A stretch of 50,178 nt of DNA from Candidatus Saccharibacteria bacterium UBA2112 (GTDB taxonomy: Bacteria > Patescibacteriota > Saccharimonadia > Saccharimonadales > Saccharimonadaceae), in contig DCYK01000013.1 in the NCBI GenBank assembly GCA_002331045.1, forward strand, positions 1-50,178. The letters are read 5' to 3'. The notes beneath the pieces were generated by a model. The model made no database searches, was not told the DNA's origin, and saw nothing but the letters and a program-made list of their open reading frames with translations. Below, one piece after another: positions 4,516 to 35,224 of the stretch; the first letter of the stretch is position 1, and every line of letters begins with the position of its first letter. Both the position numbers and the translations under genes were made by a program.

Positions 4516-6120
4516 TCAGCGTTTTTCGTCTTCGGCTTTTAATGCTGAATAAACACCATTCGTCCACCCAAAGCCATCTTGCAGTGTATATTCACCGCCC
4601 CCTCCAGGTTCGTTTGGCGTCACAACATTATACTTTTCAACCATTTTGTTTTCTCGTTCATAGACTGTATCGCACGTCTTCAGCCAACGCTCTTTGATGC
4701 GATCGGCAAGTGTGTGATAACCATATTCACGTAAACCGTAGATCGTCACCCACTGTAGCGGCGCCCAGCCATTCGGTGAGTCCCACTGTTGCCCAGTTTC
4801 GAGCAACGTCGTCACCAACCCTCCGTCTTTGAGAAAATCTTTTTCGATTCGCTCAGCGACAGCTTTTGCCTGATTTGGTGTTGCGATCTTCGCATACAGC
4901 GGAAAAATTCCGGCAAGCGTTACCCTACCCGTTCGCTCACTTGCACGAAAATCATAATCGATAAAGAATTGCTCACCCTCATCCCACATGTATTTATTAA
5001 TTGCGGCCGCACGTTTTTCGGCCAATCGACGATATCGCCTCGCAAGAAGCGGCTGGAACATTAACTGATAGGTTTCAGCTATTGTCACCTCTAAGTGGTA
5101 TAACAAGCAGTTGAGATCAACTGGAACAATATCGGTCGTGTGGATCGAGCTAATTTCTTTTGGATCTTTGAACCATCGACTGCTAAAATCCCAGCCGCTC
5201 TCTGCACCAGCCCGAAGATCCAAAAATAGTTTTTCTGATATCTCTTTGTCTGTCTGACCTGCCGTATCCGTATCTTCGCGAAGTGATTCGGGTCGCGGTG
5301 TTTTCTTGTTATCAAAATAACGATTGAGGTGTGTGCCATCGGGCATACGTACAACTCGCCGTAACGCAGAAGCCTCATCCATTTTATCGAGTGTTCGCTT
5401 ACCACGCATCCAAAAGCGATATTCACCGAGCATATACGGTAGATATTCAAGTAGTGTAAGATGACGATTTTGATGACGCGCAAGCAATCTGACCATATGA
5501 CTAAAGAATGGTGGCTGACTACGCGACAAAAGATATGTCCGGTTACCGTTTGGGATAAATCCAAACTTTCGAATCATGTAAGTCGAATTCCGTATCATAT
5601 CTTCTACACGACCCCACTTACCATCAGCGGCCAAGCCAATCATAATGAAATAACTATCCCAATAATACTGCTCAACAAATCGCCCACCCGGGACAATGTA
5701 CGGATAAGGTATGGCGATCAATGATCCACGATCACGGCGATTACGACGCTCCAAAACTCGCCATAATTCCTTAATATGCTCACGAGGGGTGTGCTCGGTA
5801 TTACTAAAATACGTCGGTGCCTTGTGCTCGAATTCATAAAAATGGCGACCGACAAATTCTTGCAAATCAAAGTTTGGATCTTCACGTTCAACCAGGTATT
5901 CTTTCCTGATTTGTTTCAGTCGTTTGCGTGGTATTAAATCGATAAACGTTTTACCATCTGAATACACCTGCCGCTGTTGCACGAGGTCAAAGAGCTCACC
6001 TAATGCCTCATCAGGACTTTCCTTTGTTAGCATCAGGGCACCTGCCGTGCTAACGAGCGCCGACTTCAACGCCTCCTCTGAGGCAAGGCCAATACTACTA
6101 AGTTTATTTATCTTTGGCAT
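4516..6120 (-). CDS. treA: Trehalase (glycoside hydrolase family 37)
   Basis: Both classical trehalase signatures are present: PGGRFVEQYYWDSYF and QWDSPNGWAPLQW. 534 aa. Confidence 0.9.
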   Translation of the reverse strand: MPKINKLSSIGLASEEALKSALVSTAGALMLTKESPDEALGELFDLVQQRQVYSDGKTFIDLIPRKRLKQIRKEYLVEREDPNFDLQEFVGRHFYEFEHKAPTYFSNTEHTPREHIKELWRVLERRNRRDRGSLIAIPYPYIVPGGRFVEQYYWDSYFIMIGLAADGKWGRVEDMIRNSTYMIRKFGFIPNGNRTYLLSRSQPPFFSHMVRLLARHQNRHLTLLEYLPYMLGEYRFWMRGKRTLDKMDEASALRRVVRMPDGTHLNRYFDNKKTPRPESLREDTDTAGQTDKEISEKLFLDLRAGAESGWDFSSRWFKDPKEISSIHTTDIVPVDLNCLLYHLEVTIAETYQLMFQPLLARRYRRLAEKRAAAINKYMWDEGEQFFIDYDFRASERTGRVTLAGIFPLYAKIATPNQAKAVAERIEKDFLKDGGLVTTLLETGQQWDSPNGWAPLQWVTIYGLREYGYHTLADRIKERWLKTCDTVYERENKMVEKYNVVTPNEPGGGGEYTLQDGFGWTNGVYSALKAEDEKR

Positions 6121-8095: not shown

Positions 8096-8182
8096 GCGCG
8101 TGTGCTGGAATTGGTAGACAGGCTAGCTTGAGGGGCTAGTGTCCTTCGGGACGTGGAGGTTCAAGTCCTCTCACGCGCACCA
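8096..8182 (+). tRNA. tRNA-Leu (anticodon GAG), class II with long variable arm and encoded CCA
   Basis: Hand-folded structure. The 7-bp acceptor stem pairs GCGCGTG with CACGCGC. The D stem pairs CTG with CAG. The anticodon stem pairs CTAGC with GCTAG, with loop TTGAGGG (anticodon GAG at 8130-8132). The variable arm is GTCC-TTCG-GGAC. The T loop is TTCAAGT. Discriminator is A, followed by CCA. Confidence 0.9.
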
Positions 8183-9863
8183 ATGAAACTTCCTGGGGGC
8201 GAGTGAGCTTAAAAAGCTCGTTCACCCCTGGGATTTTTTCAATTTCCGGGGTTCCACAAGCGATTTCCGCGTAACTTGGAACCTGATCGAAAACGACCCC
8301 AAAATATCGTGCTTTTAGGACTGGATTACAGTGGTCAATAAGTAATTCTTTGAGGTGTTCCACAAAGTATTTTACGTATGTCAATATTGTCGGCATATCG
8401 ACGTTTCCTTTCATCTCCTGTCCGTCAACACGGACATCCAAATCGTTAATTTGCTGCTCTATTTTATTTAAGTCCTCCTCCATATATTTAATTGCTGTTG
8501 GCGATGAAACCAACCTCATCTTATCTACGATCACACGCATCTCCGCCTCAAGCTCTTCGCGCCTTTTATCGCGATGGTCACTCTCATTTTGCGCACGCGC
8601 TTGGCGCTGTTCCCAAACCGTCAGGACAGCCTGCAGTACTTCATCCAAGCGCTTGGGGTCTACGACAAGCCGCTCAACAAATTGGTTAATCTTTTCGTCG
8701 AATTCGTTCTTGGGAACGCGGAAATAGTGGCCGTGATGACTGCAATGATATGCAGGATAGTATTTGCCGAGCTTGCCGCGCGAGGCACTACCCAGCAGAG
8801 GGTTGCGACAGGTCGGGCACGTCACTAACTTACGGTACGGGAACTCGCCATTGTATATGTTTTTCTTCACGAATTTTTCTTGTTTTGGCGCTCTCGTGAC
8901 AATAGGATGATCATGATCATCGGAGTTCAGCGTAATACTTATCTTGCCGCGATTGGCTTTATTCCACAGATCAATCGATACAAGTCCGTTGAACTTACAT
9001 AGCACCGGTTGCCCACCCGTCCATTTCTCCGTATTAACGCCAGCGTAGATTGTCTTGGCGACATATACCCGAAGAAGTTTTGCGGTCATTTTCTTACTAC
9101 CACTACGCCGGACAATCTTAGTACGGTCGGCCTTATCCCGTATTACCTTTAAGGGTGTCTGGAACCCCATGCGGTTCATTTCGTCAGCAATTTGGTCGTC
9201 GCTATACATGCCGCTGGCACGCATTTCATACATCTTACGGATAATTGGGGCCTGGTCGTCATACGGCGCAAGGATTGACCGCTTGCCATTGGTCGTTTCT
9301 ATTTTCTTGGTTTCGTAACCATACAAAGCGCCCCTCGACCAGTAACCGATCTGCGTGTAGCGAATCTCCGAGCCAATCATGCGAGTGAGGATATCCCGCA
9401 CCTCGTCTTTCGCCCGTTCCGCCTCAAGAATCTCCGTTTTCCTTGATGGAGTATGGATACTCCATTTGTACTCCATACCCAAATGTTCGAGCGTATTAAC
9501 TTTAACGTTACTAATCACACCGTACATGTCCTCAAGATCCACATTGCACGGTTCAAGTTGCCGTTTCAATAAATCGTAAGCTGTAGATCCCCCTCGGGTA
9601 AAGCGGTCAATCGACTTGACCAGCACGACATCGATCTCATTCTTCGGATCAACCGCATAATCAATCACATGTTGCATGGGTTGTTTATCTCCGGCTGCGG
9701 ATTCCAGATATGTCAGGATTTTGACAATGTTTATTCCGTGAGCAGGCGCATAGCGTTTACCTTGCTCTATCTGCGCCTCTGGAGAATCCCCATCAATCCC
9801 TTGACCGACCGTCGAGACGCGAACGGCCAGCACTCCGTTACGAAGCTTGCTGTTCGGTGCCAT
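8136..9863 (-). CDS. Large serine recombinase (integrase)
   Basis: 575 aa. The resolvase catalytic region is LAVRVSTVGQ...SIDRFTRGG. A recombinase domain follows (ALYGYETKK...). There is a zinc ribbon, CPTCRNPLLGS...YHCSHHGHY, then a coiled coil. Confidence 0.9.
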   Translation of the reverse strand: MAPNSKLRNGVLAVRVSTVGQGIDGDSPEAQIEQGKRYAPAHGINIVKILTYLESAAGDKQPMQHVIDYAVDPKNEIDVVLVKSIDRFTRGGSTAYDLLKRQLEPCNVDLEDMYGVISNVKVNTLEHLGMEYKWSIHTPSRKTEILEAERAKDEVRDILTRMIGSEIRYTQIGYWSRGALYGYETKKIETTNGKRSILAPYDDQAPIIRKMYEMRASGMYSDDQIADEMNRMGFQTPLKVIRDKADRTKIVRRSGSKKMTAKLLRVYVAKTIYAGVNTEKWTGGQPVLCKFNGLVSIDLWNKANRGKISITLNSDDHDHPIVTRAPKQEKFVKKNIYNGEFPYRKLVTCPTCRNPLLGSASRGKLGKYYPAYHCSHHGHYFRVPKNEFDEKINQFVERLVVDPKRLDEVLQAVLTVWEQRQARAQNESDHRDKRREELEAEMRVIVDKMRLVSSPTAIKYMEEDLNKIEQQINDLDVRVDGQEMKGNVDMPTILTYVKYFVEHLKELLIDHCNPVLKARYFGVVFDQVPSYAEIACGTPEIEKIPGVNELFKLTRPQEVSLVRVRGLEPPRPEGH

Positions 9864-20160: not shown

Positions 20161-20673
20161 ATGCCTGAGAGACAAGATAAATTAAAAAATTTAGATGATA
20201 CTAAGACGCAGAATTGGCTTGATCTTGCCAGTCATTTTCAAGCAAAAGTTTTAAAACGCACGTCAGAAGTGGCCTTTTTACATACAAAGGCGGGTTTCCT
20301 AATCGCAGCAGCAGTTATAGAACTCCAAGCGATATCTGAATTGCCAAAATTCACAAATAATCTGATGATTTATGGTATGTTAGTTGCCGCAACTCTCGCA
20401 TTCACGTCATTGGTAATCTCCATTACATCAATGAACATTAGTAGGAGTGCGACACCGCTCAATCCCGACGATATGATCCTCGGGCTTACCGAGCGGCCAA
20501 AGATGAGCCGTAGTGATTTTGCAAACTGGCTCGCCAAAAGCTACGCAGCCGCGAATAAAGAGTTTAACTCAAAATACAGTCGGAAATACAATCAGCAAAT
20601 TATTTCAGCCAGTTTATTAGTCGCGTCATTCGTTATCATTGTAATTTTGAAAGGAATTCATACCTATGTCTGA
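20161..20673 (+). CDS. Small 3-TM protein, Pycsar-effector/DUF5706-like topology (tentative)
   Basis: 170 aa. A polar N-terminal helix precedes HTKAGFLIAAAVIEL (TM1) and TM2. A ~55-aa polar linker follows, then a C-terminal TM3. The family call is from memory and needs an HMM check. Confidence 0.45.
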   Translation: MPERQDKLKNLDDTKTQNWLDLASHFQAKVLKRTSEVAFLHTKAGFLIAAAVIELQAISELPKFTNNLMIYGMLVAATLAFTSLVISITSMNISRSATPLNPDDMILGLTERPKMSRSDFANWLAKSYAAANKEFNSKYSRKYNQQIISASLLVASFVIIVILKGIHTYV

Positions 20674-20908
20674 TACCGATGAACCGTACGTCGAGCCAGC
20701 TGTAAGCGCGCCGGAAGCCTCTTATGATGTAGTTCGGGAAACGTACCAACCACCAACGGCATCTATAGAATCGGTAAAGGCTGACACCTTGCCGCGCGCT
20801 TCGGTTGAAACCGTCCAGCTCAGTGAAGATCCAAAACCAGCCCAGCCGCAACCATCAGTAGATTACGAGAAAAAAGGTCTTGGCCTCGACGGGCGACGAC
20901 TCGGTTAA
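20666..20908 (+). CDS. Small acidic, Pro/Glu/Ser-rich disordered protein (80 aa)
   Basis: The start overlaps the upstream stop (ATGTCTGA), suggesting translational coupling. The composition is low-complexity. Confidence 0.4.
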   Translation: MSDTDEPYVEPAVSAPEASYDVVRETYQPPTASIESVKADTLPRASVETVQLSEDPKPAQPQPSVDYEKKGLGLDGRRLG

Positions 20909-20977: not shown

Positions 20978-21436
20978 ATGGTAAAAACAGGGACGACAGC
21001 GGAGGATAAAAGAAAACACTTGGAGTTTGTTCAAGGTGTTGTCAACCGCATGGCGTCAAATTCTTTTCTGTTCAAGGGCTGGTCGATAACTATCATCGCC
21101 GGACTTTCGGCTTTTGCCACTACAGACTCAAATACCGCGTTCATGGTCATACCGATCGTCTCGACTTTGTTGTTTTGGAGCGTGGACGCGTATTATCTCA
21201 TGCTTGAGCGAGCGTTCAGAAATATCTACAACAAAGTTGCCAAAACGAAGCCGGAGCAAATTGATTACTCTTTGACGCCTGCCAAAGAGGACAGAACCGT
21301 GAAGTCATGGGCGAAGGTGTTCTTCGGACGGCCAATTCTGGTTCTTTTCTACGGAACCGTCCTTGTTATGCTGATTATCTTGTCGTTGATACTAAATAAT
21401 TACGGATTGGAAGTGAGGATTATCCATGGCTCGTAA
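20978..21436 (+). CDS. Small 3-TM protein coupled to the TIR-like gene
   Basis: 152 aa. An N-terminal helix KRKHLEFVQGVVNRMASNSFLFKGW runs into TM1, then TM2, a polar linker and a C-terminal TM3. This is the same topology as 20161-20673. It overlaps the next gene by 11 nt. Confidence 0.6.
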   Translation: MVKTGTTAEDKRKHLEFVQGVVNRMASNSFLFKGWSITIIAGLSAFATTDSNTAFMVIPIVSTLLFWSVDAYYLMLERAFRNIYNKVAKTKPEQIDYSLTPAKEDRTVKSWAKVFFGRPILVLFYGTVLVMLIILSLILNNYGLEVRIIHGS

Positions 21437-21875
21437 AGTATTTTTCAGCTTTCACTACGCCCGTGACGCATGGCGCGTCGGACAAGTGAGGAATAGCAAC
21501 GTAATAACCGGTCTGGAGAAAAGCCCTTTCTACGATAAAGCGCAGTGGGAAACGATAAAGCGACAGGGCGACCAGGCAGTAAAAAATTGGATCGACAATC
21601 AACTCAACGGAACTTCCGTAACCATAGTATTGATCGGTAAAGAGACGGCTTCCCGCAGGTGGGTTAAATATGAAATTCAAAAAAGTATAGAGCTTGGCAA
21701 AGGGCTTTTGGGCGTTCATATCACTGGCATAAAAGACCAGAATGGAAATACGGAAACCGCGCTTGGCGCGAACCCACTGCCCGCTGGATATCCTGTGTAT
21801 AAATGGAACGCTAGCGACGGTGCTAAAAACCTTGGCGTATGGATTGAGCAGGCTGCAGTTAAAGCAGGCAGATAA
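21426..21875 (+). CDS. TIR-like domain protein (ThsB / DUF1863 / MTH538-type)
   Basis: 149 aa. The family hallmarks are KVFFSFHYARDAWRVGQVRN at the N-terminus and RRWVKYEIQKSIELGKGLLGV, which contains the conserved Glu. A GTGAGGA SD lies upstream. Confidence 0.8.
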   Translation: MARKVFFSFHYARDAWRVGQVRNSNVITGLEKSPFYDKAQWETIKRQGDQAVKNWIDNQLNGTSVTIVLIGKETASRRWVKYEIQKSIELGKGLLGVHITGIKDQNGNTETALGANPLPAGYPVYKWNASDGAKNLGVWIEQAAVKAGR

Positions 21876-22016
21876 AAATTATGTAGTAGAATTTGCAATA
21901 CTTTCATAGGTGGTGAAGATTCTTATGCTATCTCTGAAAAAGCTTACGTTGATCATATTAAGAAATATTTCATGGTATCTTCAAGTCACAACTATTTTCA
22001 AACGGAGGGTCCCATC

Positions 22017-22361
22017 GTGATCAGAAGTTCCATTGGTATTAAAATAGTGACATTTACAGTATTAGTGGGAATACCAATAGTGTTCACAACACCAGCGTTC
22101 GCCGCAGGGGGCGACGTCGCGCAGGTGCAGACGTTTATTCGAAGCGTCATACAGGTAGTAGCAGGTTTGGCCGGTCTCGTCGCGACCGGTTTTATTGTTG
22201 TTGGTGGTTTCACCTACATCACCAGCTCGGGCAATCCCGAGCACCTCGACAGGGCAAAGCGCACGCTGTTCTTTTCGGGCGGCGGACTTGCCATTGTCAT
22301 AGCCGCTTTCGTCCTGAGTAACATCGTGACGACACTGGCGACTCAAGCATTCGGAGCCTAG
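22017..22361 (+). CDS. VirB2/TrbC-like T4SS pilin-type protein
   Basis: The ORF opens at 21972, but the GTG at 22017 lies 7 nt after GGAGGG. It has a signal peptide ending AFA|AGG, two hydrophobic helices, and a GGFTYITSSGNPEHLDRAKR loop. Confidence 0.6.
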   Translation: MIRSSIGIKIVTFTVLVGIPIVFTTPAFAAGGDVAQVQTFIRSVIQVVAGLAGLVATGFIVVGGFTYITSSGNPEHLDRAKRTLFFSGGGLAIVIAAFVLSNIVTTLATQAFGA

Positions 22362-22364
22362 ATC

Positions 22365-23828
22365 ATGGAAACCCTAACCATGAGCTTGTCGATCATGGCA
22401 GACACGTCCAGTGCTATTGCTGTCATGAGAGATTACGTGGGGCCGACTTTACAGATGTTTGCGGCAATCGCCGGAATCGCCTGCACGTTTTTCATTGTGC
22501 ACGGCGGCTACCTGTACATGACCAGTGTCGGCAGGCCGGACACGCTAGAACACTCCAAGCGGATTATGCGAAACGCAGTCATCGGACTGGTCATTATCTT
22601 AGGTGCCGCAACGCTGACATCCATACTGGCGAACGCCTATGGGCATCCGGCGGGCGGAGCGCAAGCATCGTTACCGACGCTCAACGCCATCACGCCGGAT
22701 CAGTCGAGTAGCGGACTGATCGAAGTGTTGATCAACGCGGTCATAGGCTTCCTGAACAATATCATTCAGGCGGTCGCCGCGCCGTTCCTGGGGGCGCTCA
22801 ATTACTTCACTTCCGGCACACCGCTGATGGTTAAAAACCCAAGCGTGTTTAATCTATGGCTGGCAGTTGTCGGTATAACGGACGTGCTGTTCGTGATCGT
22901 TCTGGCACTGATTGGCTTTCACTTCATGAGCGCTGCCAGTTTCGGCTTCGACGAAATAGAATTCAAGCATCTGCTGCCGAGAATTGCCCTCGTGTTCCTG
23001 CTGATCAATACATCGATCTTCATCATCGACGGGTTCATCGAACTGTCCAATGTGCTCATTACTGCGATTACCAAAGTCTCCGGCAGCGCGTCTGTGTGGG
23101 ACACGTTGACCAGCGTTGTTAAAGATTCCGGCGGACAGGGACTGGCAGCGCTGCTGATGATGCTGGCCTTCATCGTCTTTTCGGTCATGCTGCTCGTCTA
23201 TTACGTCATCCGCCTGGTGACGCTTTTTATCGGAGCTGTGTTGTCGCCGCTAATCTTCCTCATCTGGCTCGTTCCTGGCTTTCGCGATTTTTCGGAAACA
23301 GCCGCCAAGACGTATCTGACAACCGTCTTCGTCCTGTTCGTCCATGTTGTCATCTTGCAGCTTTCCGCATCGCTGTTCACCGGCATGGCGGCATCGAGCG
23401 ACAATGACGTGCCGAATACGCTGATGGCGATGGTAGCGGGCTTAGCCACGGTCGTTGTGCTGCTAAAAACTCAGGGCGTGATGATGCAGTTCGGCTACGT
23501 CAGTGGCGGCGCAAGGAATGCACGAAAACTCGGTGGCCAGTTTATGAACGGTGTCAGCTACATCACAGGCAAGGGTAAAGCAGTCGTTTCAACGATGTCA
23601 TCCCGCACCGCCCAATCGACCGGCTCAAGTTCAGGCGGCGGTAGTCGCGGCAAAGGTCTCCATGTCGTTTCATATACCCAACCTCGCAGCGGTGCTGGCA
23701 AAAATGCGCCGAAGCCCGCCGTATCCGTTTCCCGTAAAACCGGAGCAACGCACGAAGCGCCGAAAGTATCATCAAGACCATCTGCCAGCGAGCTGACAAC
23801 TAAGAAAGAAAGGGAGAAGAAATCATGA
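22365..23828 (+). CDS. VirB6/TrbL-like polytopic T4SS membrane protein with N-terminal pilin-like module
   Basis: 487 aa with at least 7 TM helices and a Ser/Gly/Lys-rich C-terminal tail. The N-terminal ~90 aa align with the upstream pilin. Confidence 0.7.
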   Translation: METLTMSLSIMADTSSAIAVMRDYVGPTLQMFAAIAGIACTFFIVHGGYLYMTSVGRPDTLEHSKRIMRNAVIGLVIILGAATLTSILANAYGHPAGGAQASLPTLNAITPDQSSSGLIEVLINAVIGFLNNIIQAVAAPFLGALNYFTSGTPLMVKNPSVFNLWLAVVGITDVLFVIVLALIGFHFMSAASFGFDEIEFKHLLPRIALVFLLINTSIFIIDGFIELSNVLITAITKVSGSASVWDTLTSVVKDSGGQGLAALLMMLAFIVFSVMLLVYYVIRLVTLFIGAVLSPLIFLIWLVPGFRDFSETAAKTYLTTVFVLFVHVVILQLSASLFTGMAASSDNDVPNTLMAMVAGLATVVVLLKTQGVMMQFGYVSGGARNARKLGGQFMNGVSYITGKGKAVVSTMSSRTAQSTGSSSGGGSRGKGLHVVSYTQPRSGAGKNAPKPAVSVSRKTGATHEAPKVSSRPSASELTTKKEREKKS

Positions 23829-24334
23829 AAGCAACGATTGTACCAGCACAAGTAACGACGGTTGAAGACCGGATCATGGGAGGACTGAGCTTTTCGCAGC
23901 TGATGCTGCTGCTTGTACCCGTATTCATGAGCGCGGGTATATACACGATGATTCCACCGTTTATGGACGGCAACATCTATAAATACATCGTGATGGGGGC
24001 AGTCGCTTTAATCTGCGGAATTCTCGCGATACGCATCAAGGGGAAGATACTCGCCTTGTGGCTGGCGATCGTTCTCCGGTACAATCTCCGTCCGAAATAC
24101 TATCTGTTCAACAAGAACACAACCGCCCTCCGCGAGCAGTACGCCGACCATGTTCCAGCGGCTGAAGAAAAGACCGAACGACAAAGCCTGAAAGAGCGGG
24201 TGCAAGTACCGCACCTTGAGCTGCACGAAGTGACGAAGGTTATGACAAAGCTGGAAAACCCGGCGGCCAAGCTGCGATTCGAAACCACAAGAAATGGAGG
24301 TCTCTATGTTCGCCTTACAGAAATCGAAGAATAA
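23825..24334 (+). CDS. PrgI-family / VirB3-like T4SS membrane protein
   Basis: 169 aa. VPAQVTTVEDRIMGGLSFSQLMLLL is followed by two TM helices. An ATGA overlap links it to the upstream gene. Confidence 0.55.
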   Translation: MKATIVPAQVTTVEDRIMGGLSFSQLMLLLVPVFMSAGIYTMIPPFMDGNIYKYIVMGAVALICGILAIRIKGKILALWLAIVLRYNLRPKYYLFNKNTTALREQYADHVPAAEEKTERQSLKERVQVPHLELHEVTKVMTKLENPAAKLRFETTRNGGLYVRLTEIEE

Positions 24335-24941
24335 AACCAGCGCCCGAAATCAGATAGCGATCAAGGGCGTGCGCGACGGTATTCTCATGTTGCCGAATAA
24401 CGAATACCGCGCCGTGCTGCAAGTGTCGTCACTGAATTTCGAGCTGAAAAGCGAGGACGAGCAGGACGCGATTATCGAGACCTACGAGAGCTTCTTAAAC
24501 TCCGTCGGTTCGTCGCTTCAAATCCTTGTTCGTACCCGCGAAATCGACATGGATAAATACCTTGAAGATTTGAACGTGCGGCGTGGCGGCGAGACGGAGC
24601 AGGTCTACCGCGACCAACTGAAAAACTATGATGAGTTTATCCGCTCGCTTATCATGACAAACAAAATCCTCACCAGGCACTTCTATATCGTCGTGCCGTA
24701 CAACACGACCGGCAAGGCGGACTTTGAGCTGATTCAGGAACAGATCAACCTGAAACTCGACATCGTGGCAAAAGGCATGATGCGCATCGGCATGCACACG
24801 AAAGAACTGACCAGCCTTGAAATACTCGATTTGTTCTACAGCTTCTACAGTCCGGCTCAGGCAAAGGTACAGCCGCTCACCGAACAAGCTCTGCGCATGA
24901 TACATGCCGCCATGATCGAGAAAGGAGACCAAGATGGATAA
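24306..24941 (+). CDS. VirB4-family N-terminal domain as a separate ORF
   Basis: IAIKGVRDGILMLPNNEYRAVLQVSSLNFELKSEDEQDAI...FLNSV matches the N-terminus of monoderm VirB4 (PrgJ/TcpF/Orf16-type). The ATG at 24306 lies 5 nt after GGAGG. Confidence 0.6.
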   Translation: MFALQKSKNKTSARNQIAIKGVRDGILMLPNNEYRAVLQVSSLNFELKSEDEQDAIIETYESFLNSVGSSLQILVRTREIDMDKYLEDLNVRRGGETEQVYRDQLKNYDEFIRSLIMTNKILTRHFYIVVPYNTTGKADFELIQEQINLKLDIVAKGMMRIGMHTKELTSLEILDLFYSFYSPAQAKVQPLTEQALRMIHAAMIEKGDQDG

Positions 24942-26670
24942 ACTTTTCGCACCAGTCAAAAAACGCCGAGAGGAACGAAAGGCAAAACAAAAAGAGCTGT
25001 CTCTCGCGTTTGGCGAGCAGGATGCAGTAGACGTACTGTCCTACGCCGGTTTGGAGGAGAACGTTGACCACCTTTGTATCGACGGCGTTTATATCCGCAC
25101 GCTTTATATCTCCGGCTATCCGTTCGTGGCAAGCTCAGGCTGGCTCGACAGCCTCATCAACTTCAACCATGACGCTGATATCAGCTACCATTTGCACGAA
25201 GTCAACGCGCTCCACGCCTTGCCGAAACTGCACCGAAAGATTACCGAGCTTGAATCAACGCGCCGTTCGATGATGCGAGCCGGAAAGATCGTCGGATCGG
25301 AAATCACCGACCCGCTGGAATCTGCCATCGAACTGCGCGACAAGATCCAGCGCGGACAGGAAAAGCTGTTCCAGATGTCGATTTACGTTTGTCTTCGCGC
25401 CGAAAGTTTGGAAGAACTCAACAAAACGACGACGCTCCTTGAAGCAACTCTGTCCGCCAGGTTGTTTTACTCAAAAGTCGCACGCTACCAACAGCTCGAA
25501 GCCTTACAATCCATCCTGCCGCGCGGTGAAGATCAGCTGTCGCAGAAACGAAACCTCGACAGTTCGTCTGCCGCCCTGACGTTTCCGTTCATGTCATCCG
25601 AGCTGGTGCAGGAATCAGGCATTTTGTACGGTGTTAACAAATCGAATAACTCACTGGTCATTCTTGACCGGTTCAGCCTGCATAACGCTAACAGTATCGT
25701 CTTCGCACAGTCCGGCTCCGGTAAAAGCTACACGACAAAGGTAGAAATACTACGCCAACTCATGCAAGGCACGAAGGTACTGGTGATTGATCCCGAACGA
25801 GAATATAAAATGCTGGCCGAATCGGTCGGCGGTACATATATAAAGCTGTCCGCCAAAAGCAAGGAAAAGATCAATCCGTTCGATCTCGCCACAACATACC
25901 ACACGGCAAGCGACCTGTCCGAACACGCACAGGATTTGACGGAAGTCATCAGCCTCATGGCCGAAGGTCTGAGTTCGCGGGAAAAAGCGGCGGTCGATAA
26001 ATCTATCCTGCGTATTTATAAGAAAGCAAAAGAACAGCAGCCACTGCTTGAAGATTTGTACACCGAGCTACATAAACTCGGTCAGGTTAAACTCTGCGAA
26101 CGGCTAGAAAAGTACATCTCCGGCTCGCTAGCCGATGTGTTCAACGCGCAAACGAACATCAAACTCGACAACCGCCTAGTGATATTCGATATCAAGGATT
26201 TGCCTGAGAGTTTGCGCCAGATCATGATGCTGATTATCAGCAACTTCGTGCAAAATCAGGTGAAAGCCAAACCGGAAAAACGACTACTGATTATCGACGA
26301 GGGCTGGATGCTGCTCGAACATGAAGAGTCGGCACGATTCGTTGCCGGACTTGTCCGCCGCGCCCGCAAATACTACTTGGGCGTATCAATCATTTCGCAA
26401 CAGGCAAACGACTTTCTGCGCTCGGATTACGGCCGGGCAATCGCGTCGCAGTCGGCGCTTCGCATTCTCATGCGACAGGATACAACAACGATCAAGAATG
26501 TTGTGTCCGAGTTTAATTTGAGTGAATACGAACAGAGCTTTCTGTTGACCTGTGAGCGCGGCGACGCGTTGATCATCGCCGACCAAAACCATGTCGCCGT
26601 CAAGGTTGTTGCTTCGGATAAAGAGCACCCTCTTATCACGACCAATCCAGCGGAGCTTTACAGCGCATGA
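24934..26670 (+). CDS. virB4: VirB4-family T4SS ATPase (central and C-terminal ATPase part)
   Basis: 578 aa. Motifs are IDGVYIRTLYISGYP, Walker A AQSGSGKSYTTK and Walker B LLIIDEGW. An 8-nt overlap (ATGGATAA) links it to the previous ORF. Confidence 0.9.
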   Translation: MDKLFAPVKKRREERKAKQKELSLAFGEQDAVDVLSYAGLEENVDHLCIDGVYIRTLYISGYPFVASSGWLDSLINFNHDADISYHLHEVNALHALPKLHRKITELESTRRSMMRAGKIVGSEITDPLESAIELRDKIQRGQEKLFQMSIYVCLRAESLEELNKTTTLLEATLSARLFYSKVARYQQLEALQSILPRGEDQLSQKRNLDSSSAALTFPFMSSELVQESGILYGVNKSNNSLVILDRFSLHNANSIVFAQSGSGKSYTTKVEILRQLMQGTKVLVIDPEREYKMLAESVGGTYIKLSAKSKEKINPFDLATTYHTASDLSEHAQDLTEVISLMAEGLSSREKAAVDKSILRIYKKAKEQQPLLEDLYTELHKLGQVKLCERLEKYISGSLADVFNAQTNIKLDNRLVIFDIKDLPESLRQIMMLIISNFVQNQVKAKPEKRLLIIDEGWMLLEHEESARFVAGLVRRARKYYLGVSIISQQANDFLRSDYGRAIASQSALRILMRQDTTTIKNVVSEFNLSEYEQSFLLTCERGDALIIADQNHVAVKVVASDKEHPLITTNPAELYSA

Positions 26671-27209
26671 GCCCCGCGCTCATCCTCACTTTCGGCAGTG
26701 GGATGAAAAAGCAGCTTGCCATCGTGTTTGCCACTATGGCCGTCACGTTGGCGCTGCCGTTTGTCGCGGTGGCATCTATGGGTTCGGAAGTCCTGACGTT
26801 CCTATCAGGCGCACCGAGCGCGGAAGCGGCAGAAACGCAAGGATTCTATACTGGCGGGCCCGTACCTGGTAATACGTACGCTTGGGGCAACTGCACCTAC
26901 TGGGCGTTCGCGCAGAGGTTGTGGGCGAACAAACCTATTCCGACATCTTGGGGCAATGCGAATACATGGGACGACCGCGCACGGGCTGACGGCTATGTGG
27001 TTGATCATACTCCGAAAGTAACGGCTATATTCCAAACCGATGAGGGCGACTTCGGACACGTGGCCTATGTGACAAAAGTTGCAGATGATGGCAAATGGAC
27101 AATTACAGAGATGAACGCGCCGACGCTCAATGTAGTTAGAACAAGAACGTTCACTGCATCAGCAGCGCAGCACTACACCTTTATCCACGATAAGAAAGGC
27201 TCGTCATGA
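26667..27209 (+). CDS. Secreted CHAP-domain cell-wall hydrolase (T4SS-associated VirB1 analogue)
   Basis: It has a signal peptide (MKKQLAIVFATMAVTLALPFVAVA). The CHAP Cys is in GNCTYWAF and the His in FGHVAYV. The start is either 26667 (ATGA overlap) or 26703. Confidence 0.85.
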   Translation: MSPALILTFGSGMKKQLAIVFATMAVTLALPFVAVASMGSEVLTFLSGAPSAEAAETQGFYTGGPVPGNTYAWGNCTYWAFAQRLWANKPIPTSWGNANTWDDRARADGYVVDHTPKVTAIFQTDEGDFGHVAYVTKVADDGKWTITEMNAPTLNVVRTRTFTASAAQHYTFIHDKKGSS

Positions 27210-29695
27210 TCTTCCGGTACTTAAACCGCCGATATCTGAAACACCGCTCGATAGTATGGCTGGAGATCACGCCGCCCGCATCGATCGCGAAAACCCCGGC
27301 CGCGACAGAACACCTGTTTTCCGTCATTCATGGCAACCGTGCGGCACGCAGCTTACGAGACAGGTTGCTCGGACGCTCGCCTGTCATGAGTTTCGAGATT
27401 ACTTCGACCAAAAAAGACGGTATACGGTATCTTGTGCAGGTTGAGTCATCCAGATCGGACAGCATACAAAAGGCTATCGTGTCGTACATCCCGGATTCAA
27501 AAGTGTCTGTTATCGCTCCGCCGGAACAGAGACACGCCGAGGTCATAGAATTTAAACAGCAAAAACATTACGTGCTTCCCATCCGACTTGCATCCGCGTT
27601 TGATCAACATGACCCGCTTTCGTACATTACCGGCGCAATGACAAAATTGAATGACGACGAACAAATCACGATGCAGCTCATCGTGACGCCGGTTGTACTG
27701 CGTGAAGCGAAGAGCCTTTCGCGCCGTATACTCGGAAACGAAGATATATTGAGACGAATTCAAAACAACAAAGTGTCCTTTGTTAGCCGTATCGGCGAGC
27801 TGATGGGAGGTTTTGCGCTCGGCACGGCGGAAATGGGGGGCGAATTTCATAACGGCACGACTCGCAGTTACTATTCGTCAAAAGCAGGCAAAGATGCACA
27901 GTTTCAGTCGCAGGTCTTAAAGAGGCAGCGTCCGGCACGAACACTCAGCGCGTTCGAGCTTGAACTGATGGAATCGATGCATCAAAAAGTCACTAAATCC
28001 CTCTTTGCAGTCAATCTCCGTGTACTCATAACCAGTGACAATCCGAAAGAACACATCGCCGCATTTCGTTCGGCGCTTGATGCATACTCCGTACCGCCAT
28101 ACCAGGAACTGAAAGCAAAGCTGCGCCTGCCTTTTCTTAACAGTTACCGAGCCCGACTTGCCAGTTTGCGGCTCCCGTCACTCTTTCGGCGTCACGGATT
28201 GGTGCTGGCGGCGTCGGAAATTGCGAGTTTGTACCATTTCCCATCAAGCCGTATCAGCAAAACGGACAACCTCATTACATCTCTCAGCCGTACATTGCCC
28301 GCTCCCGTCACGCTCAAACAAAACAGGCAGCTTGACGTTATTCTCGGCGAAAATATCCATCATGGCACAGCAACTCCGATCGGCCTCACCGAACATGAGC
28401 GACAACGACATTTGTATATCATCGGTGGTACCGGCAACGGCAAGACAACGATGTTGCAATATCAAATCGTCCAAGACATACAAGGCGGCAAGGGTATCGC
28501 TGTCATCGATCCGCACGGTGATATGGCCGAAACCCTGCTTACTCATATACCGGAAGAGCGCATGAAGGATGTTATCTATTTCAATCCCGATGATTTGGAG
28601 TATCCTATCGGTCTTAACCTGCTTGAGCTGACGCCCGGACTCACTGGCAATGAACTGCTGCGCGAAAAAGACATCATTACCGAATCGGTTATATCGGTCT
28701 TTCGCAAGATATTCTCAGAAGAAGATACCGGCGGCCACCGCATCGAGTATGTGCTGCGTAACGCGATACAGACGGCGCTGACCGTCGAGAATGCAACGCT
28801 GTTCACCGTTTTTGATCTCCTCAATGATACGAAGTATCGAAGAGCCGTCATCAAGACGCTTGATGACAAGAACCTCATAAACTTTTGGAAGAATGAGCTT
28901 GGTAAGGCCGGGGACATGCAGAAAGTAAAGATGGCCGCCGGTATCACGGCCAAGATCGGCCGTTTCCTATTCTCGGCATCGGCGCGGCAGATATTGGAAC
29001 AGCCGAAATCAACCATCGACTTTGACGGGATTATCAATGACGGTAAAATCCTGATCTGCAATTTCTCGAAAGGGCTGATCGGCGAAGATACGTCGGAACT
29101 GTTCGGTATTACTATTCTCGCCAAGCTTCAGCTGGCAAGCCTCCGAAGGGCACGAATCGCACAAGCCGCCCGCCGCCCGTTCTATCTCTACGTCGACGAG
29201 TTCCAAAACTTCGCCACTACCTCGTTCGTGCAGATGCTATCCGAAGCCAGGAAGTACAAGATGTTCATGATAATGGCCGAGCAGTCGACAAGCCAACAGA
29301 AAGACCAGCAGATGGTGAGCGTTATCCTTGCGAATGTCGGCACGGTTATATGTTTCAGAACAGGCAACCCGCAAGATGAGCGTACGCTACTGCCACTATT
29401 CAGTCCGTATGTGGAGCAGGGAGAAATTAGTAACCTGCCAGCTTTTAATTTCTACGCCAAGTTATCCGCTATTCAGGCACAGGAACCAATGTCGGGACAG
29501 ACATTCCTACTAGAGGGTGAAGGAAACCCGGCTATTGCGCAAAAAGTTATCAAGCACTCTCGGAAAAAATATGCCAAAAAACAAGAAAAACAGCCAAAGA
29601 AAACCGATACAACTGATGCGAAGAGAAGAGCGACCAAGACAACTACTCCTTCGTTGGCCAACGGCGTGCTAGATATTGAAGCTGGACGAGGCTAA
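27206..29695 (+). CDS. VirD4/TraD/TraG-like type IV coupling ATPase with a large N-terminal domain
   Basis: 829 aa. Motifs are Walker A IIGGTGNGKTTM, VIDPHGD and Walker B FYLYVDEFQNF. No obvious N-terminal TM helices. Confidence 0.85.
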   Translation: MIFRYLNRRYLKHRSIVWLEITPPASIAKTPAATEHLFSVIHGNRAARSLRDRLLGRSPVMSFEITSTKKDGIRYLVQVESSRSDSIQKAIVSYIPDSKVSVIAPPEQRHAEVIEFKQQKHYVLPIRLASAFDQHDPLSYITGAMTKLNDDEQITMQLIVTPVVLREAKSLSRRILGNEDILRRIQNNKVSFVSRIGELMGGFALGTAEMGGEFHNGTTRSYYSSKAGKDAQFQSQVLKRQRPARTLSAFELELMESMHQKVTKSLFAVNLRVLITSDNPKEHIAAFRSALDAYSVPPYQELKAKLRLPFLNSYRARLASLRLPSLFRRHGLVLAASEIASLYHFPSSRISKTDNLITSLSRTLPAPVTLKQNRQLDVILGENIHHGTATPIGLTEHERQRHLYIIGGTGNGKTTMLQYQIVQDIQGGKGIAVIDPHGDMAETLLTHIPEERMKDVIYFNPDDLEYPIGLNLLELTPGLTGNELLREKDIITESVISVFRKIFSEEDTGGHRIEYVLRNAIQTALTVENATLFTVFDLLNDTKYRRAVIKTLDDKNLINFWKNELGKAGDMQKVKMAAGITAKIGRFLFSASARQILEQPKSTIDFDGIINDGKILICNFSKGLIGEDTSELFGITILAKLQLASLRRARIAQAARRPFYLYVDEFQNFATTSFVQMLSEARKYKMFMIMAEQSTSQQKDQQMVSVILANVGTVICFRTGNPQDERTLLPLFSPYVEQGEISNLPAFNFYAKLSAIQAQEPMSGQTFLLEGEGNPAIAQKVIKHSRKKYAKKQEKQPKKTDTTDAKRRATKTTTPSLANGVLDIEAGRG

Positions 29696-29911: not shown

Positions 29912-30358
29912 TTACTCCTTTATGTATCTATTGATAGCGATAAACTTGCATAAGTCCTTTGCTATCGTTACTGATACCATTTTTCTCATTATCTCACAAC
30001 TATCATTGAACGATAAGATATTGAGACTCCCCTCATAGATGACCCTGCGATCAATGATAGCCAGCTTGCGATGATGGCCACTCGTATAAAGTACTGTGAC
30101 ACCTAAATCCTGCATTGCTGCAACGGCTTCGAGTGCCTGGTAGTAATAGTCACCGTCATGCTCAATTGGATCGCGCGTATTTACGATGATGCGTACATTT
30201 TTCCTACGCATTTTTGCAAATTCAGGCAACAACATGTTCATGCGCTTTTCGGTGATGAACGGGCTTTCTATTATCAACTCCTGCCTGCAAGTACCAATAT
30301 CGCGCATGAATGCTTTATAAAATGTGTTCTGATCGTAGAGTGACGTGCTATTCAGCAT
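29912..30358 (-). CDS. Single-HKD phospholipase D superfamily protein (Nuc-like nuclease candidate)
   Basis: 148 aa. The canonical H-x-K-x4-D-x6-GS-x-N motif is present as GHHRKLAIIDRRVIYEGSLNILS. No signal peptide. Confidence 0.85.
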   Translation of the reverse strand: MLNSTSLYDQNTFYKAFMRDIGTCRQELIIESPFITEKRMNMLLPEFAKMRRKNVRIIVNTRDPIEHDGDYYYQALEAVAAMQDLGVTVLYTSGHHRKLAIIDRRVIYEGSLNILSFNDSCEIMRKMVSVTIAKDLCKFIAINRYIKE

Positions 30359-30713: not shown

Positions 30714-32609
30714 CTACTCAACACGTGGTTTGCGAAATAGACGAGGTACGGATCGTACTGTCAAATCTTTAACGGCAATCGTCGTATTGGACGGGAAATA
30801 TAACCCACACAATGTACCCGTTTGATTGGCGGAATCATAGGCTTCAGCAACGATCTCGCCATTTACCAGTGCATAGATATTTGATCCATAAACCATCAAA
30901 CCTACACGTTTTCCTGCCGCAACGGTTCCCGTCGGCAAGCTCGTACCGACCAGCGCAACTGTTCCACCAGCAGTTGTGGTTTTTTGTATTTGTCCATCGC
31001 CACTCGATGTCCATGCGAGTCGATATGAATCTGCCGAGCCTGTCGCACCAGCAACAATATATGCCCAACCCGAAGTTTGCCGTGCGACAATCGTGCATTC
31101 TATTCGCACATTATGCGAACCTGGGTCGACAAATATCACACGCGTCGATCCATCCGGTGAAGCAATCCGCTTTATAGCTCCACCTTCAATACGGTATTGT
31201 GGAGCCCAGCCACTCCATGTTAAAGTCTGCCCGCCAAGTCCTGCATTTGTCGACACAATCGGATCGACCGCTGTACGACAATCCTCTGAAGTAAGAATAG
31301 CTCCACCCACTGCGCGGAGACGCGTAGTCAAAACATCAATGATTGTTTCCTGATAGTCTGTGCGGATACTTACGGGACCAGCAGCAGATACAACACGCGC
31401 TCCAGGGCCACCAGCTGTCGTACCCACATTCGTAACCCGTCGCAGTTGTGCAAAAATTGTGCTCCAATCGGTGCGCATACGCTCTAGTGCAGGGCGCATC
31501 ACAACAGCTGCTTCACCGTCAACAGAAATCGCTGCCGATTCGGATGAGTCACCAACATACACACCATAATTTTGCATCGCCTCAGCAAGTGCATACCCTT
31601 CCTGCGTCAAGCCAAGTGTCGTTATATCTACACTTGGCGGTATAGCAAAAAACGATCCCATCGGAACATTACCTGAATACGTTACCGTTCCCGCATCCTC
31701 TGCAGCCGCTGGCCATACGAATCCACGTAATAATGCTTCTGGCGGAATCGAGATACATAACGCATGAGGGATATAATATTTTGATAATTCATGTGAACGT
31801 ATCAGGCCGCCCGAGGTTGGAAAACGTGCGGCGCGAGTACCTGCGTTTCGTCCAGTTCCGAGCAAATCTGTGCGAGTAATAAAATCAGCCGTATAGGTAA
31901 CGTCGTCAACCTTTACTGTTTTCCAGTAGTCATACGCCCAGCGCCCATCGATAATACGCATCGACCCATCTGATCCTGTAGAAATAACGGGATCATAAGG
32001 GATACGATGCGTAAAGCTGATAGGGGTCCCATTGTTAGTATATGTACCTGTACCAATAGGATCTCCCGGTCGCGTAATATTCAAGTAGAATCCATAGCCA
32101 TTCAAGGTGTCATTAATCACTGGTGTCGCCGCCAAGAAATCAGCTGTTGCTGCATCTCCTGCCGTCTCATACACGCAACCATTGCCAATCGGCGTGTTCC
32201 ATATTGAATCTGCCGCAAACGGCTGCGTATCGGTACTGCGAAAAACAGCTGGTAAATACGCTGCTGGCACGCGCGAATCAACCGTTGGTGCATAACTTGC
32301 ATCAGCAACTGTCTGCGAGATCGACTGATCCGCCTTATCAAGGCTCGTCACCACGTTCGAGTTGAGTTGCGTCGTTGTGATCGACCCATCAGCAATCGTT
32401 GCAGCGGTAATGGCATTGTCAGCGATAGCAGCGGAGGTGACACTGTTGTTCTGAAGCTTTGCGCTAGTAATGGCGTTATCAGCAAGTTGCGCAGATCCGA
32501 CAGTATCTGCCTTGAGGGTACCATCACTGCTGTGAGATTGCGAGAGATAGTCGTTGAGGATTTGGCCCCAGGTGCCAGAGTCTTTGCCGGGGATGGGAAG
32601 GCGGGACAT
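30714..32609 (-). CDS. Tail-fibre-like / surface protein with N-terminal decapeptide repeats and C-terminal beta-rich domain
   Basis: The ATG at 32609 lies 9 nt after GGAGG, whereas the ORF-track GTG at 32615 is too close to the SD. The N-terminus is LPIPGKDSGTWGQILNDYL. Five tandem 10-aa repeats follow (LADNAITSAK/LQNNSVTSAA/IADNAITAAT/IADGSITTTQ/LNSNVVTSLD). 631 aa. Confidence 0.7.
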   Translation of the reverse strand: MSRLPIPGKDSGTWGQILNDYLSQSHSSDGTLKADTVGSAQLADNAITSAKLQNNSVTSAAIADNAITAATIADGSITTTQLNSNVVTSLDKADQSISQTVADASYAPTVDSRVPAAYLPAVFRSTDTQPFAADSIWNTPIGNGCVYETAGDAATADFLAATPVINDTLNGYGFYLNITRPGDPIGTGTYTNNGTPISFTHRIPYDPVISTGSDGSMRIIDGRWAYDYWKTVKVDDVTYTADFITRTDLLGTGRNAGTRAARFPTSGGLIRSHELSKYYIPHALCISIPPEALLRGFVWPAAAEDAGTVTYSGNVPMGSFFAIPPSVDITTLGLTQEGYALAEAMQNYGVYVGDSSESAAISVDGEAAVVMRPALERMRTDWSTIFAQLRRVTNVGTTAGGPGARVVSAAGPVSIRTDYQETIIDVLTTRLRAVGGAILTSEDCRTAVDPIVSTNAGLGGQTLTWSGWAPQYRIEGGAIKRIASPDGSTRVIFVDPGSHNVRIECTIVARQTSGWAYIVAGATGSADSYRLAWTSSGDGQIQKTTTAGGTVALVGTSLPTGTVAAGKRVGLMVYGSNIYALVNGEIVAEAYDSANQTGTLCGLYFPSNTTIAVKDLTVRSVPRLFRKPRVE

Positions 32610-32628
32610 TAGCACAGACCTCCAGTCT

Positions 32629-34610: not shown

Positions 34611-34838
34611 CTATGAAGGCAATAAGAGTCCCGCTAAGATTGATAACACAAACACAACGGCAAGCACAATTGTTGCTTCAAAAAGGTTCTTGTCGAGACC
34701 ACGACGGGTAGTATATAGCTCACCCGAACTACCAAACCCAGCACCCAGTGATGCACCTCGCTGCTGTAATAGAATACTAATAACCATTAATACAGCCGAG
34801 CCTATCGTTACCGTCTGCAAAATACTATCAATTGTCAT
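34611..34838 (-). CDS. secG: Preprotein translocase subunit SecG
   Basis: 75 aa with two TM helices flanking the Gly-rich loop LLQQRGASLGAGFGSSGE. Confidence 0.8.
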   Translation of the reverse strand: MTIDSILQTVTIGSAVLMVISILLQQRGASLGAGFGSSGELYTTRRGLDKNLFEATIVLAVVFVLSILAGLLLPS

Positions 34839-35224
34839 GACATCTCCTTCCGACGTACATTCATCTCCACAACACTGCTTACTACATAGTTTATCAAAGC
34901 GAGGATAATTCCCGCGAGTATTGAATTGCCAAAGGACATTTCAAGGCCGGGCGTCAGTTGAAGCGAAATGTAGACCAAGAAACCATTCACAACAAGAACA
35001 AAGAGACCAAGCGTCAACAAGATTGCCGGAAGAGAAAGAATAACGACTATTGGTTTAAGGATGCTGTTGATAATCGAGAAAATAAGTCCAGCTAATAGAA
35101 AAACTCCGATACTGGCATCAACCTGAGCATCACTATACCCTGTTCCGAGCAGACGGACAGCAATCCAAAGCCCAAGTGAATTTAGCGGCCAACGGATCAA
35201 AAAAATCAGAAATTGTCGTTGCAT
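34835..35224 (-). CDS. DUF360 / phage holin family IV-like 4-TM membrane protein
   Basis: 129 aa. The pattern FLIRWPLNSLGLWIAV...LKPIVVILSLPAILLTLGLFVLVVNG is typical of the YvlD/DUF360 family. Confidence 0.7.
   Translation of the reverse strand: MQRQFLIFLIRWPLNSLGLWIAVRLLGTGYSDAQVDASIGVFLLAGLIFSIINSILKPIVVILSLPAILLTLGLFVLVVNGFLVYISLQLTPGLEMSFGNSILAGIILALINYVVSSVVEMNVRRKEMS

Follow-up and report, generated by a model that had tools for sequence, protein, structure and literature searches.

Thoeris types V–XI were defined by Yirmiya et al. in December 2025 (bioRxiv 10.64898/2025.12.03.692087). Type V consists of ThsB and ThsF, a three-TM protein, which the authors annotate as Pfam DUF2270 and for which AF3 gave a channel-like homo-heptamer with basic pockets between the protomers. 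Two Bacillus type V systems protected B. subtilis, and the type V Bacillus ThsBs synthesised 3'cADPR upon infection. Cells with the B. thuringiensis system were poisoned by added 3'cADPR but not by other isomers; the Tad1 sponge lowered type V defence. External 3'cADPR did not trigger the validated type V system of Bacillus sp. 1NLA3E, and the single type V system tried in E. coli gave no defence (bioRxiv 10.64898/2025.12.03.692087). [quoted passage not shown]

Types II (TM plus Macro, ThsC) and VII (SLATT, ThsH) resemble type V in that a TIR-made signal activates a membrane-disrupting effector, but differ from it in the signal, which is His-ADPR in type II and canonical cADPR in type VII. In addition, PADLOC-DB v2 holds a candidate two-protein system, PDC-M50, which is itself unvalidated and undescribed; a literature search for "PDC-M50" found no paper that mentions it.

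Here, we describe an overlapping gene pair in a 50,178-nt stretch of DNA from a Saccharibacteria-like marine bacterium (hereafter the window). We consider it highly probable that this pair represents an anti-phage system of Thoeris type V, in the gene order thsF–thsB, likely coupled and carried as cargo on a probable conjugative element. The pair is very likely functional. As a kind, it is already known, both as PADLOC PDC-M50 (2023, candidate) and as type V Thoeris (December 2025, validated).

The thsF–thsB gene pair

The features of the pair are as follows.

[quoted passage not shown]
21426–21875, plus strand: thsB, encoding a 149-aa stand-alone ThsB-type TIR protein assigned as sensor and signal synthase, with putative catalytic Glu83
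21426–21436, plus strand: 11-nt overlap ATGGCTCGTAA of the thsF stop and the thsB start, taken from the sequence

The preliminary description of this DNA, made from the letters alone, had reported the two ORFs of 152 and 149 aa with their 11-nt overlap, and both were found at the positions given there. The motifs KVFFSFHYARDAWRVGQVRN and WVKYEIQKS that it quoted are present in the 149-aa protein. The overlap suggests translational coupling, and thsF and thsB are probably coupled in this way. A Shine-Dalgarno-like motif, GAGGA, lies 6 nt 5' of the thsB ATG in the window sequence, and the 11-nt type of overlap is preserved in the ten closest loci (L001–L010). A scan for promoters and terminators around the pair gave results at chance level. 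No second TIR gene or ThsF copy was found in the window, and none of the approximately 35 window ORFs scanned with Pfam contained a SIR2 or SLOG domain.

Assignment to type V Thoeris and PDC-M50

Both window proteins matched the PADLOC-DB v2 profiles of PDC-M50 over their full length: ThsF matched PDC-M50A (PDLC04686) at 2e-43 and ThsB matched PDC-M50B (PDLC04688) at 3.8e-56. The window pair is tied to type V by three independent links, which concern the effector, exact matches to Table S1 and the TIR itself (see below). When the validated ThsB of B. thuringiensis DAR 81934, listed in full in Table S1, served as the query, a 100% identical protein (P0121) was found in a B. cereus-group genome, which carries the same ThsB and may not be strain DAR 81934 itself. 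At this locus (L081), a gene for a 141-aa protein (4773–5198) starts 14 nt downstream of thsB. The protein shares 35% identity and 67% similarity with the window ThsF over 127 residues (BLASTP, E 2e-33), aligns with the window ThsF family alignment at an HHalign probability of 99.9% and matches PDC-M50A at 1.8e-48. Since the ThsF of L081 and that of the window both match PDC-M50A, PDC-M50 and type V Thoeris represent one system. Furthermore, two TIR proteins that each adjoin a homologue of the window TM protein, from Aquimarina amphilecti DSM 25232 (L048) and Phocaeicola barnesiae DSM 18169 (L051), are letter-for-letter identical to IMG 2623395588 and IMG 2517817383, respectively, both labelled "DUF2270 - Type V" in Table S1.

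The Pfam model named in the preprint, DUF2270 (PF10028), gave no match to the window ThsF at E <= 1 (hmmscan). Among 32 close homologues, four had a match, with a best E of 0.083, and a few other ThsF members showed weak partial matches over TM1–TM2 of 12–14 bits, short of the 25-bit cutoff, which no member tested attained. In hmmscan, PF10028 was not matched by the validated-locus ThsF either, so in this Pfam release the model does not discriminate type V members, and its failure was not taken as excluding the window ThsF from type V. Any relationship between ThsF and DUF2270 is remote at best.

The window pair shares with type V Thoeris a two-gene make-up of a stand-alone TIR protein and a three-TM protein of approximately 140–150 aa, a wide phyletic spread and the occurrence of multi-TIR islands. 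It differs in the order thsF–thsB with an 11-nt overlap, whereas the order in B. thuringiensis is thsB–thsF; in the C-terminal tail LEVRIIHGS of ThsF, which is specific to its own subclade; and in its Saccharibacteria-like marine host and probable conjugative carrier. The preliminary description had seen in the pair a Thoeris-type module with a bare TM effector lacking a SLOG or Macro sensor, which is supported by these data. The novelty that it implied does not stand, because the pair matches the PADLOC entries PDC-M50A/B and belongs to a named and validated type.

The ThsB protein

The TIR-like nature proposed for the 149-aa protein was borne out by a match to the Pfam family ThsB_TIR (PF08937) at 3.9e-28 and 98 bits (cutoff 21.2). 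Its best matches among solved structures were 6LHY and 9B7D, both of the B. cereus MSX-D12 ThsB (about 4e-29). The conserved Glu noted in the preliminary description is Glu83 (RRWVKYEI), which aligns with the catalytic Glu85 of the B. cereus ThsB (RRWVRYEI). Among the PADLOC profiles, ThsB1 (1.7e-60) scored slightly better than PDC-M50B. No NCBIfam family was found for either ThsB or ThsF.

In Table S1, the TIR proteins nearest to the window ThsB carry the label "DUF2270 - Type V"; the nearest is IMG 2711030597, with 67% identity. The TIR clade of the window ThsB differs from the clades of both validated type V ThsBs and also includes the type I ThsB of B. cereus. With type I Thoeris (B. cereus MSX-D12), the window pair has in common the close ThsB homologue, the same catalytic Glu and a probable shared signal, 3'cADPR. 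It differs from type I by the absence of a SIR2-SLOG ThsA at the window, and by an effector that, judged from the type V homologues, would act on the membrane rather than deplete NAD+ and would do so without a separate ligand-sensor domain.

The ThsF protein

An AlphaFold2 model of the 152-aa protein, built on a 32-sequence alignment, had a pLDDT of 84.4 and a pTM of 0.72, with helices at residues 8–50, 53–89, 103–117 (short) and 119–139. This agrees with the N-terminal helix and three TM helices recognised in the preliminary description, and hydrophobic segments lie at about 30–50, 53–72 and 119–139 of the sequence. Based on the distribution of basic residues, the N-terminus and the segment 76–118 were placed in the cytoplasm. 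The predicted topology includes a cytoplasmic N-terminal helix (~8–28) continuous with TM1 (~30–50), TM2 (~53–72) with a cytoplasmic helical extension to ~89, and TM3 (~119–139).

Conservation was read from an alignment of 26 sequences, including the ThsF of the validated locus. In this alignment K11, L15, Q19, R24, N28, F30, G34, W35, W67, D70 and E77 are invariant, and E9, K13, H14, E16, K33, T38, F66, L74, R81, Y84, V87, F124 and Y125 are nearly so. Except for F124 and Y125 in TM3, the conserved residues sit on the cytoplasmic N-helix, at the cytoplasmic start of TM1 and at the cytoplasmic end and extension of TM2; TM3 and the outer loop are the variable parts of the family. The basic ones among them, invariant K11 and R24 and near-invariant K13, H14, K33 and R81, are all on the cytoplasmic side. 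As judged from the alignment, the conserved basic and aromatic residues fit a candidate cytoplasm-facing ligand and interface site that would need no separate sensor domain, and the basic residues are compatible with the basic inter-protomer pockets of the preprint.

No Pfam family was found for the 152-aa protein, and a Foldseek search of the ThsF monomer against the PDB gave no match (best E 1.5). Several candidate relatives were rejected. The SLATT and DUF5706 models, put forward in the preliminary description, revealed no relationship: neither these nor Macro had a Pfam match at E <= 1 in the window protein or in 32 + 19 homologues. DUF3278 was matched by 30 of 32 ThsF members, with a best value of 1.6e-05, but under the cutoff, and was uninformative. 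A weak full-length similarity to 8xMP (PF24838; best E 0.00029) was dropped because a literature search turned up nothing on that family.

Distribution and pairing of the ThsF family

The gene pair goes well past anything that chance would produce. Searching the protein database gave about 194 homologues of the 152-aa protein. In GTDB species genomes, the ThsF family was represented by 389 loci from Saccharibacteria, other Patescibacteria, Actinomycetota, Bacteroidota, Pseudomonadota, Bacillota, Verrucomicrobiota and archaea. To survey the pairing, 80 fetched loci, drawn from many phyla, were searched by tblastn, first with the window ThsB as the query and afterwards with a set of diverse TIR proteins. 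At 76 of the 80, at least one TIR gene lies no more than 1.5 kb from ThsF, and the TIR pairing, which the preliminary description had proposed to test in homologues of the TM protein, is conserved. At one of the four unpaired loci (L071), the contig edge lies approximately 150 bp past ThsF.

The partner TIRs comprise short ThsB types, TIR_2 types, the long B. thuringiensis type and the C-terminal TIRs of larger proteins, as well as a CAP12-type protein (L078), a WD40-Roc-TIR protein (L038) and a TIR-NB-ARC-WD40 protein (L045). STAND-type and CAP12-type TIR proteins, beside which members of the ThsF family also occur, are usually regarded as effectors. In approximately 29 of the 80 loci there are 2–4 TIR genes, drawn from several TIR clades. 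The association of one ThsF with 2–4 TIRs fits a single effector fed by interchangeable signal-making sensors.

The ten closest loci are all from Saccharibacteria MAGs, with a ThsF identity of 60–81%; they keep the overlapping thsF–thsB and have no other neighbour in common with the window. ThsF homologues were also found on 141 plasmids, 84 of them conjugative, in records that, among those listed, are annotated as "hypothetical protein", and in three 14-kb Vibrio phage-like elements, where they directly follow ThsB. Such mobility, with varying neighbours and carriage on plasmids and Vibrio phage-like elements, is typical of defence genes.

Genomic context

The features that delimit the surroundings of the pair are the following.

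8096–8182, plus strand: tRNA-Leu(GAG) (ARAGORN)
8136–9863, minus strand: large serine recombinase of 575 aa (Resolvase N-terminal domain, 2.7e-08)
21972–29695, plus strand: T4SS operon directly 3' of thsB (Pfam)

To the left lie housekeeping genes for trehalase and BipA, the latter bordering the tRNA-Leu gene and the recombinase. To the right of the recombinase are, in order, genes for a Replic_Relax protein and DUF3768, followed by cytochrome bd oxidase, two CDF transporters, DUF305, DsbA and a CHAP protein. Just 5' of thsF–thsB lies the gene for a 170-aa TM protein, which an ORF of 80 aa overlaps. The T4SS operon encodes a VirB2-like pilin, VirB6/TrbL-like, PrgI/VirB3-like and VirB4-like (ATPase) proteins, a CHAP hydrolase and a VirD4-like coupling protein. 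The T4SS is complete and of the Gram-positive/CPR style; past it come a small PLD-family protein and a 633-aa unknown protein, and further to the right the housekeeping genes for SBP_bac_5, an M24 peptidase and UvrC.

The tRNA-Leu gene together with the serine recombinase probably marks the left end of an integrative conjugative element (ICE) that carries thsF–thsB. The mobile-element setting suggested in the preliminary description is plausible in view of these two features, the relaxase-like gene, the T4SS and the coupling protein. A search for att sites found no direct repeat of at least 13 nt from the tRNA-Leu region.

Two other claims about the neighbourhood fared less well. The 170-aa TM protein, described as a three-TM protein of the same topology, was examined as a ThsF paralogue or third component and rejected: its HHalign probability is 0.35 and it is absent from all 80 related loci. 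The adjacency to the T4SS is not kept in other genomes either, as the neighbours of the window pair are missing beside it in its nearest relatives and throughout the 80 loci. The exact window ThsB was found with the same synteny in many marine metagenome assemblies. We conclude that the T4SS is not part of the defence system.

Proposed mechanism and alternative interpretations

Based on the above results and on the validated homologues, we suggest the following course of events. Phage infection would switch on ThsB, a stand-alone TIR enzyme with Glu83 as the putative catalytic residue, which would use NAD+ to make a signal of the cyclic ADP-ribose kind, with 3'cADPR as the likeliest product. 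The signal would then bind to ThsF, a predicted inner-membrane protein with its N-terminus inside, three TM helices and no separate sensor domain. ThsF subunits are predicted to assemble into a homo-oligomeric ring whose cytoplasmic face bears basic pockets between protomers. Ligand binding may open or rearrange this ring, so that membrane integrity would be lost and the infected cell would arrest or die before the release of phage progeny (abortive infection). The present analysis contributes directly the homology of both proteins, the conserved pairing, the topology and the cytoplasm-facing conserved residues; for the defence phenotype, the synthesis of 3'cADPR, the toxicity that it induces and the heptamer model, we rely on homologues described in the preprint (bioRxiv 10.64898/2025.12.03.692087). 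Signal identity, oligomeric state and activity in the host are what we infer for the window locus.

3'cADPR is the likeliest signal because it is made by the type I ThsB, the nearest characterised relative of the window ThsB, and elicits a response from the B. thuringiensis ThsF. This identity is not certain, given that the 1NLA3E system did not respond to external 3'cADPR, that no defence was obtained in E. coli and that the window ThsB falls in another TIR clade. The last point also leads to a reading in which the ICE-borne thsF–thsB is not a plain phage-defence copy of type V: its ThsB may be triggered by something else, for instance by conjugative DNA entering the cell or by competing elements, or may make a molecule different from 3'cADPR. 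We regard this as unlikely. If it is true, ThsF would be a receptor-effector fold, represented as yet in neither Pfam nor the PDB, that is tuned to several TIR products.

The preliminary description had left two possibilities for the division of labour: either the TM protein senses a TIR product directly, or the TIR is an NADase effector and the TM protein serves as its sensor or anchor. The first corresponds to what has been shown or proposed for type V Thoeris and, by analogy, would apply to the window pair. The second, with the TIR as an NAD+-depleting effector and the TM protein as its sensor, anchor or regulator, draws on the fact that some bacterial TIRs are NADase effectors, and the preprint warns that this is possible for unverified TIR configurations (bioRxiv 10.64898/2025.12.03.692087); ThsF homologues indeed stand beside the effector-like CAP12-type (L078) and STAND-TIR (L045, L038) proteins. 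It is disfavoured, however, by the validated type V data: ThsB alone makes 3'cADPR on infection, and only cells that carry the system suffer from added 3'cADPR, which puts the action of ThsF after that of the TIR. Moreover, the nearest solved relative of the window ThsB is the signal-producing type I ThsB, and the approximately 29 loci with one ThsF and 2–4 TIRs are better explained by many sensors acting on one effector. We therefore consider a TIR effector in the window pair very unlikely.

A further question is whether the pair acts against phages or serves the conjugative element, for instance in entry exclusion, T4SS regulation or the killing of competing elements. Its location inside a probable ICE, directly 5' of the gene for the T4SS pilin and in the same orientation, would suit the latter role, and this arrangement of pair and T4SS recurs in several marine metagenome contigs. 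However, neither a T4SS gene nor any other neighbour gene goes with the pair in any of the 80 loci, homologues are also located in defence islands on chromosomes (at L081, for instance, next to Gabija-like genes), and the family has been validated against phages. The chance that the pair serves conjugation is accordingly slight. Membership in a different TIR plus TM system (type VII with SLATT, the unverified "3TM" class or a type II-like system), suggested by the small TM effectors of several Thoeris types and by the missing DUF2270 match, is the least probable reading in view of the homology with the validated-locus ThsF, seen directly both pairwise and by profile, the exact-sequence links to "Type V" entries in Table S1, the lack of a SLATT or Macro match even at E <= 1 (the window effector differing in this from those of types II and VII) and the pairing of the "3TM" class, in the part of Table S1 examined, with TIRs of another cluster (YNLFISHSW...), which the window TIR does not resemble.

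Significance

The assignment of the window pair to type V Thoeris leaves the present understanding of Thoeris unchanged; the points of note are the host, the carriage on a probable ICE and the annotation gap. As to the last, ThsF is missed by the Pfam model after which it is named and is effectively unmodelled in Pfam; it is without a solved structure, and the plasmid and phage entries listed or inspected in public databases call it a "hypothetical protein". The anonymous PADLOC candidate PDC-M50 was shown to be identical with type V Thoeris, and the conserved residues on the cytoplasmic face of ThsF single out positions at which the presumed ligand site could be probed by mutation. Type V Thoeris is hereby extended to a small-genome bacterium of the Saccharibacteria type (candidate phyla radiation) and to a probable conjugative element. 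For so small a genome, an abortive-infection system is a notable investment.

Probable Conjugative Element around the thsF-thsB Pair

The thsF-thsB pair lies inside a probable integrative conjugative element, with housekeeping genes on either side. The following features were recorded in and next to it:

8096-32615: probable integrative conjugative element (right-hand limit provisional), which includes tRNA-Leu, a serine recombinase of 575 aa, Replic_Relax and DUF3768, cargo genes (cytochrome bd oxidase, two CDF metal transporters, DUF305 and DsbA) and a T4SS with VirD4
20161-20908: 170-aa TM protein and overlapping 80-aa Pro/Glu-rich ORF, a short way 5' of thsF
29912-30358: small PLD-family protein
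30714-32615: 633-aa protein
34835-35224 (-): 129-aa Phage_holin_4_2 (PF04020) family protein, within the right-hand flank of housekeeping genes

A search for att repeats (direct repeats of at least 13 nt from the tRNA region) found none. The GC content increased to 0.51-0.535 over the T4SS genes (22001-28000), compared with 0.43-0.47 in the flanks, to which the thsF-thsB pair (0.435) belongs. These values suggest a mosaic element, with separate acquisition of the defence cassette.

The two genes just upstream of thsF had no match in Pfam, NCBIfam or PADLOC. They are unrelated to ThsF and were found in none of the 80 ThsF loci. Both are kept in the same element on two marine metagenome contigs (L083 and L084).

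Family Assignment of ThsF

The DUF2270 label (PF10028) that has been given to ThsF was not recovered by hmmscan in any ThsF member tested (alignments A1 and A2 and the gene at 4773-5198 of the B. cereus-group locus L081, the ThsF of the validated locus). The best weak full-length Pfam similarity of the ThsF family was to 8xMP (PF24838, "octameric membrane protein family"; best E 0.00029), a family on which no literature was found.

Plasmids and Phage-like Elements

ThsF homologues were found on 141 PLSDB plasmids, including 84 conjugative ones, with Klebsiella, Escherichia, Campylobacter and lactobacilli among the carriers. All 12 of the listed plasmid homologues (H1-H12) were annotated as "hypothetical protein". 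The ThsF homologue of plasmid pBRV294 from L. brevis (L086, 2441-2914) adjoins an IS30 transposase and lacks an annotated TIR neighbour; therefore, this copy may represent a disrupted system.

Phage-like elements also carry type V Thoeris, as follows from a 14-kb temperate Vinavirales-type Vibrio element:

L087, 1347-2635: thsB and thsF homologue (PQ189363.1, Vibrio phage 10N.286.55.A5_PE002)

Here, the ThsB gene directly follows the integrase and carries the note Thoeris__ThsB_Global in the record. It is followed, with a 4-nt overlap, by the ThsF homologue, labelled merely hypothetical.

Defence Islands and TIR Neighbours

The B. cereus-group type V Thoeris of the validated type sits in a typical defence island, between the following genes:

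L081, 773-2119: DAC/DACNH (diadenylate-cyclase-like) gene
L081, 5454-8759: Gabija-resembling pair (OLD-TOPRIM/AAA_15 and UvrD helicase)

Bacteroidota islands combine a single ThsF with several TIR genes:

L026, 5438-8325
L066, 3901-7231
L072, 5407-8862

A TIR_2 protein of 405-430 aa and a SLOG cluster3 (PF18180) protein are also encoded in these islands, which resemble a combination of type V with type IX-like Thoeris.

Large TIR proteins of the TIR-NB-ARC-WD40, WD40-Roc-TIR and CAP12 types were left out of the survey by Yirmiya et al. (10.64898/2025.12.03.692087). Such proteins, and a STAND-like protein, adjoin ThsF homologues, in the TIR cases directly:

L045, 1726-5847 (-): TIR-NB-ARC-WD40 protein
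L038, 2952-5987: WD40-Roc-TIR protein
L078, 6488-7492: CAP12-type TIR
L073, 3061-4869: P-loop STAND-like protein

Large TIR proteins of these types are commonly regarded as NADase effectors. The adjacency of the genes hints that some of them may signal to ThsF instead.
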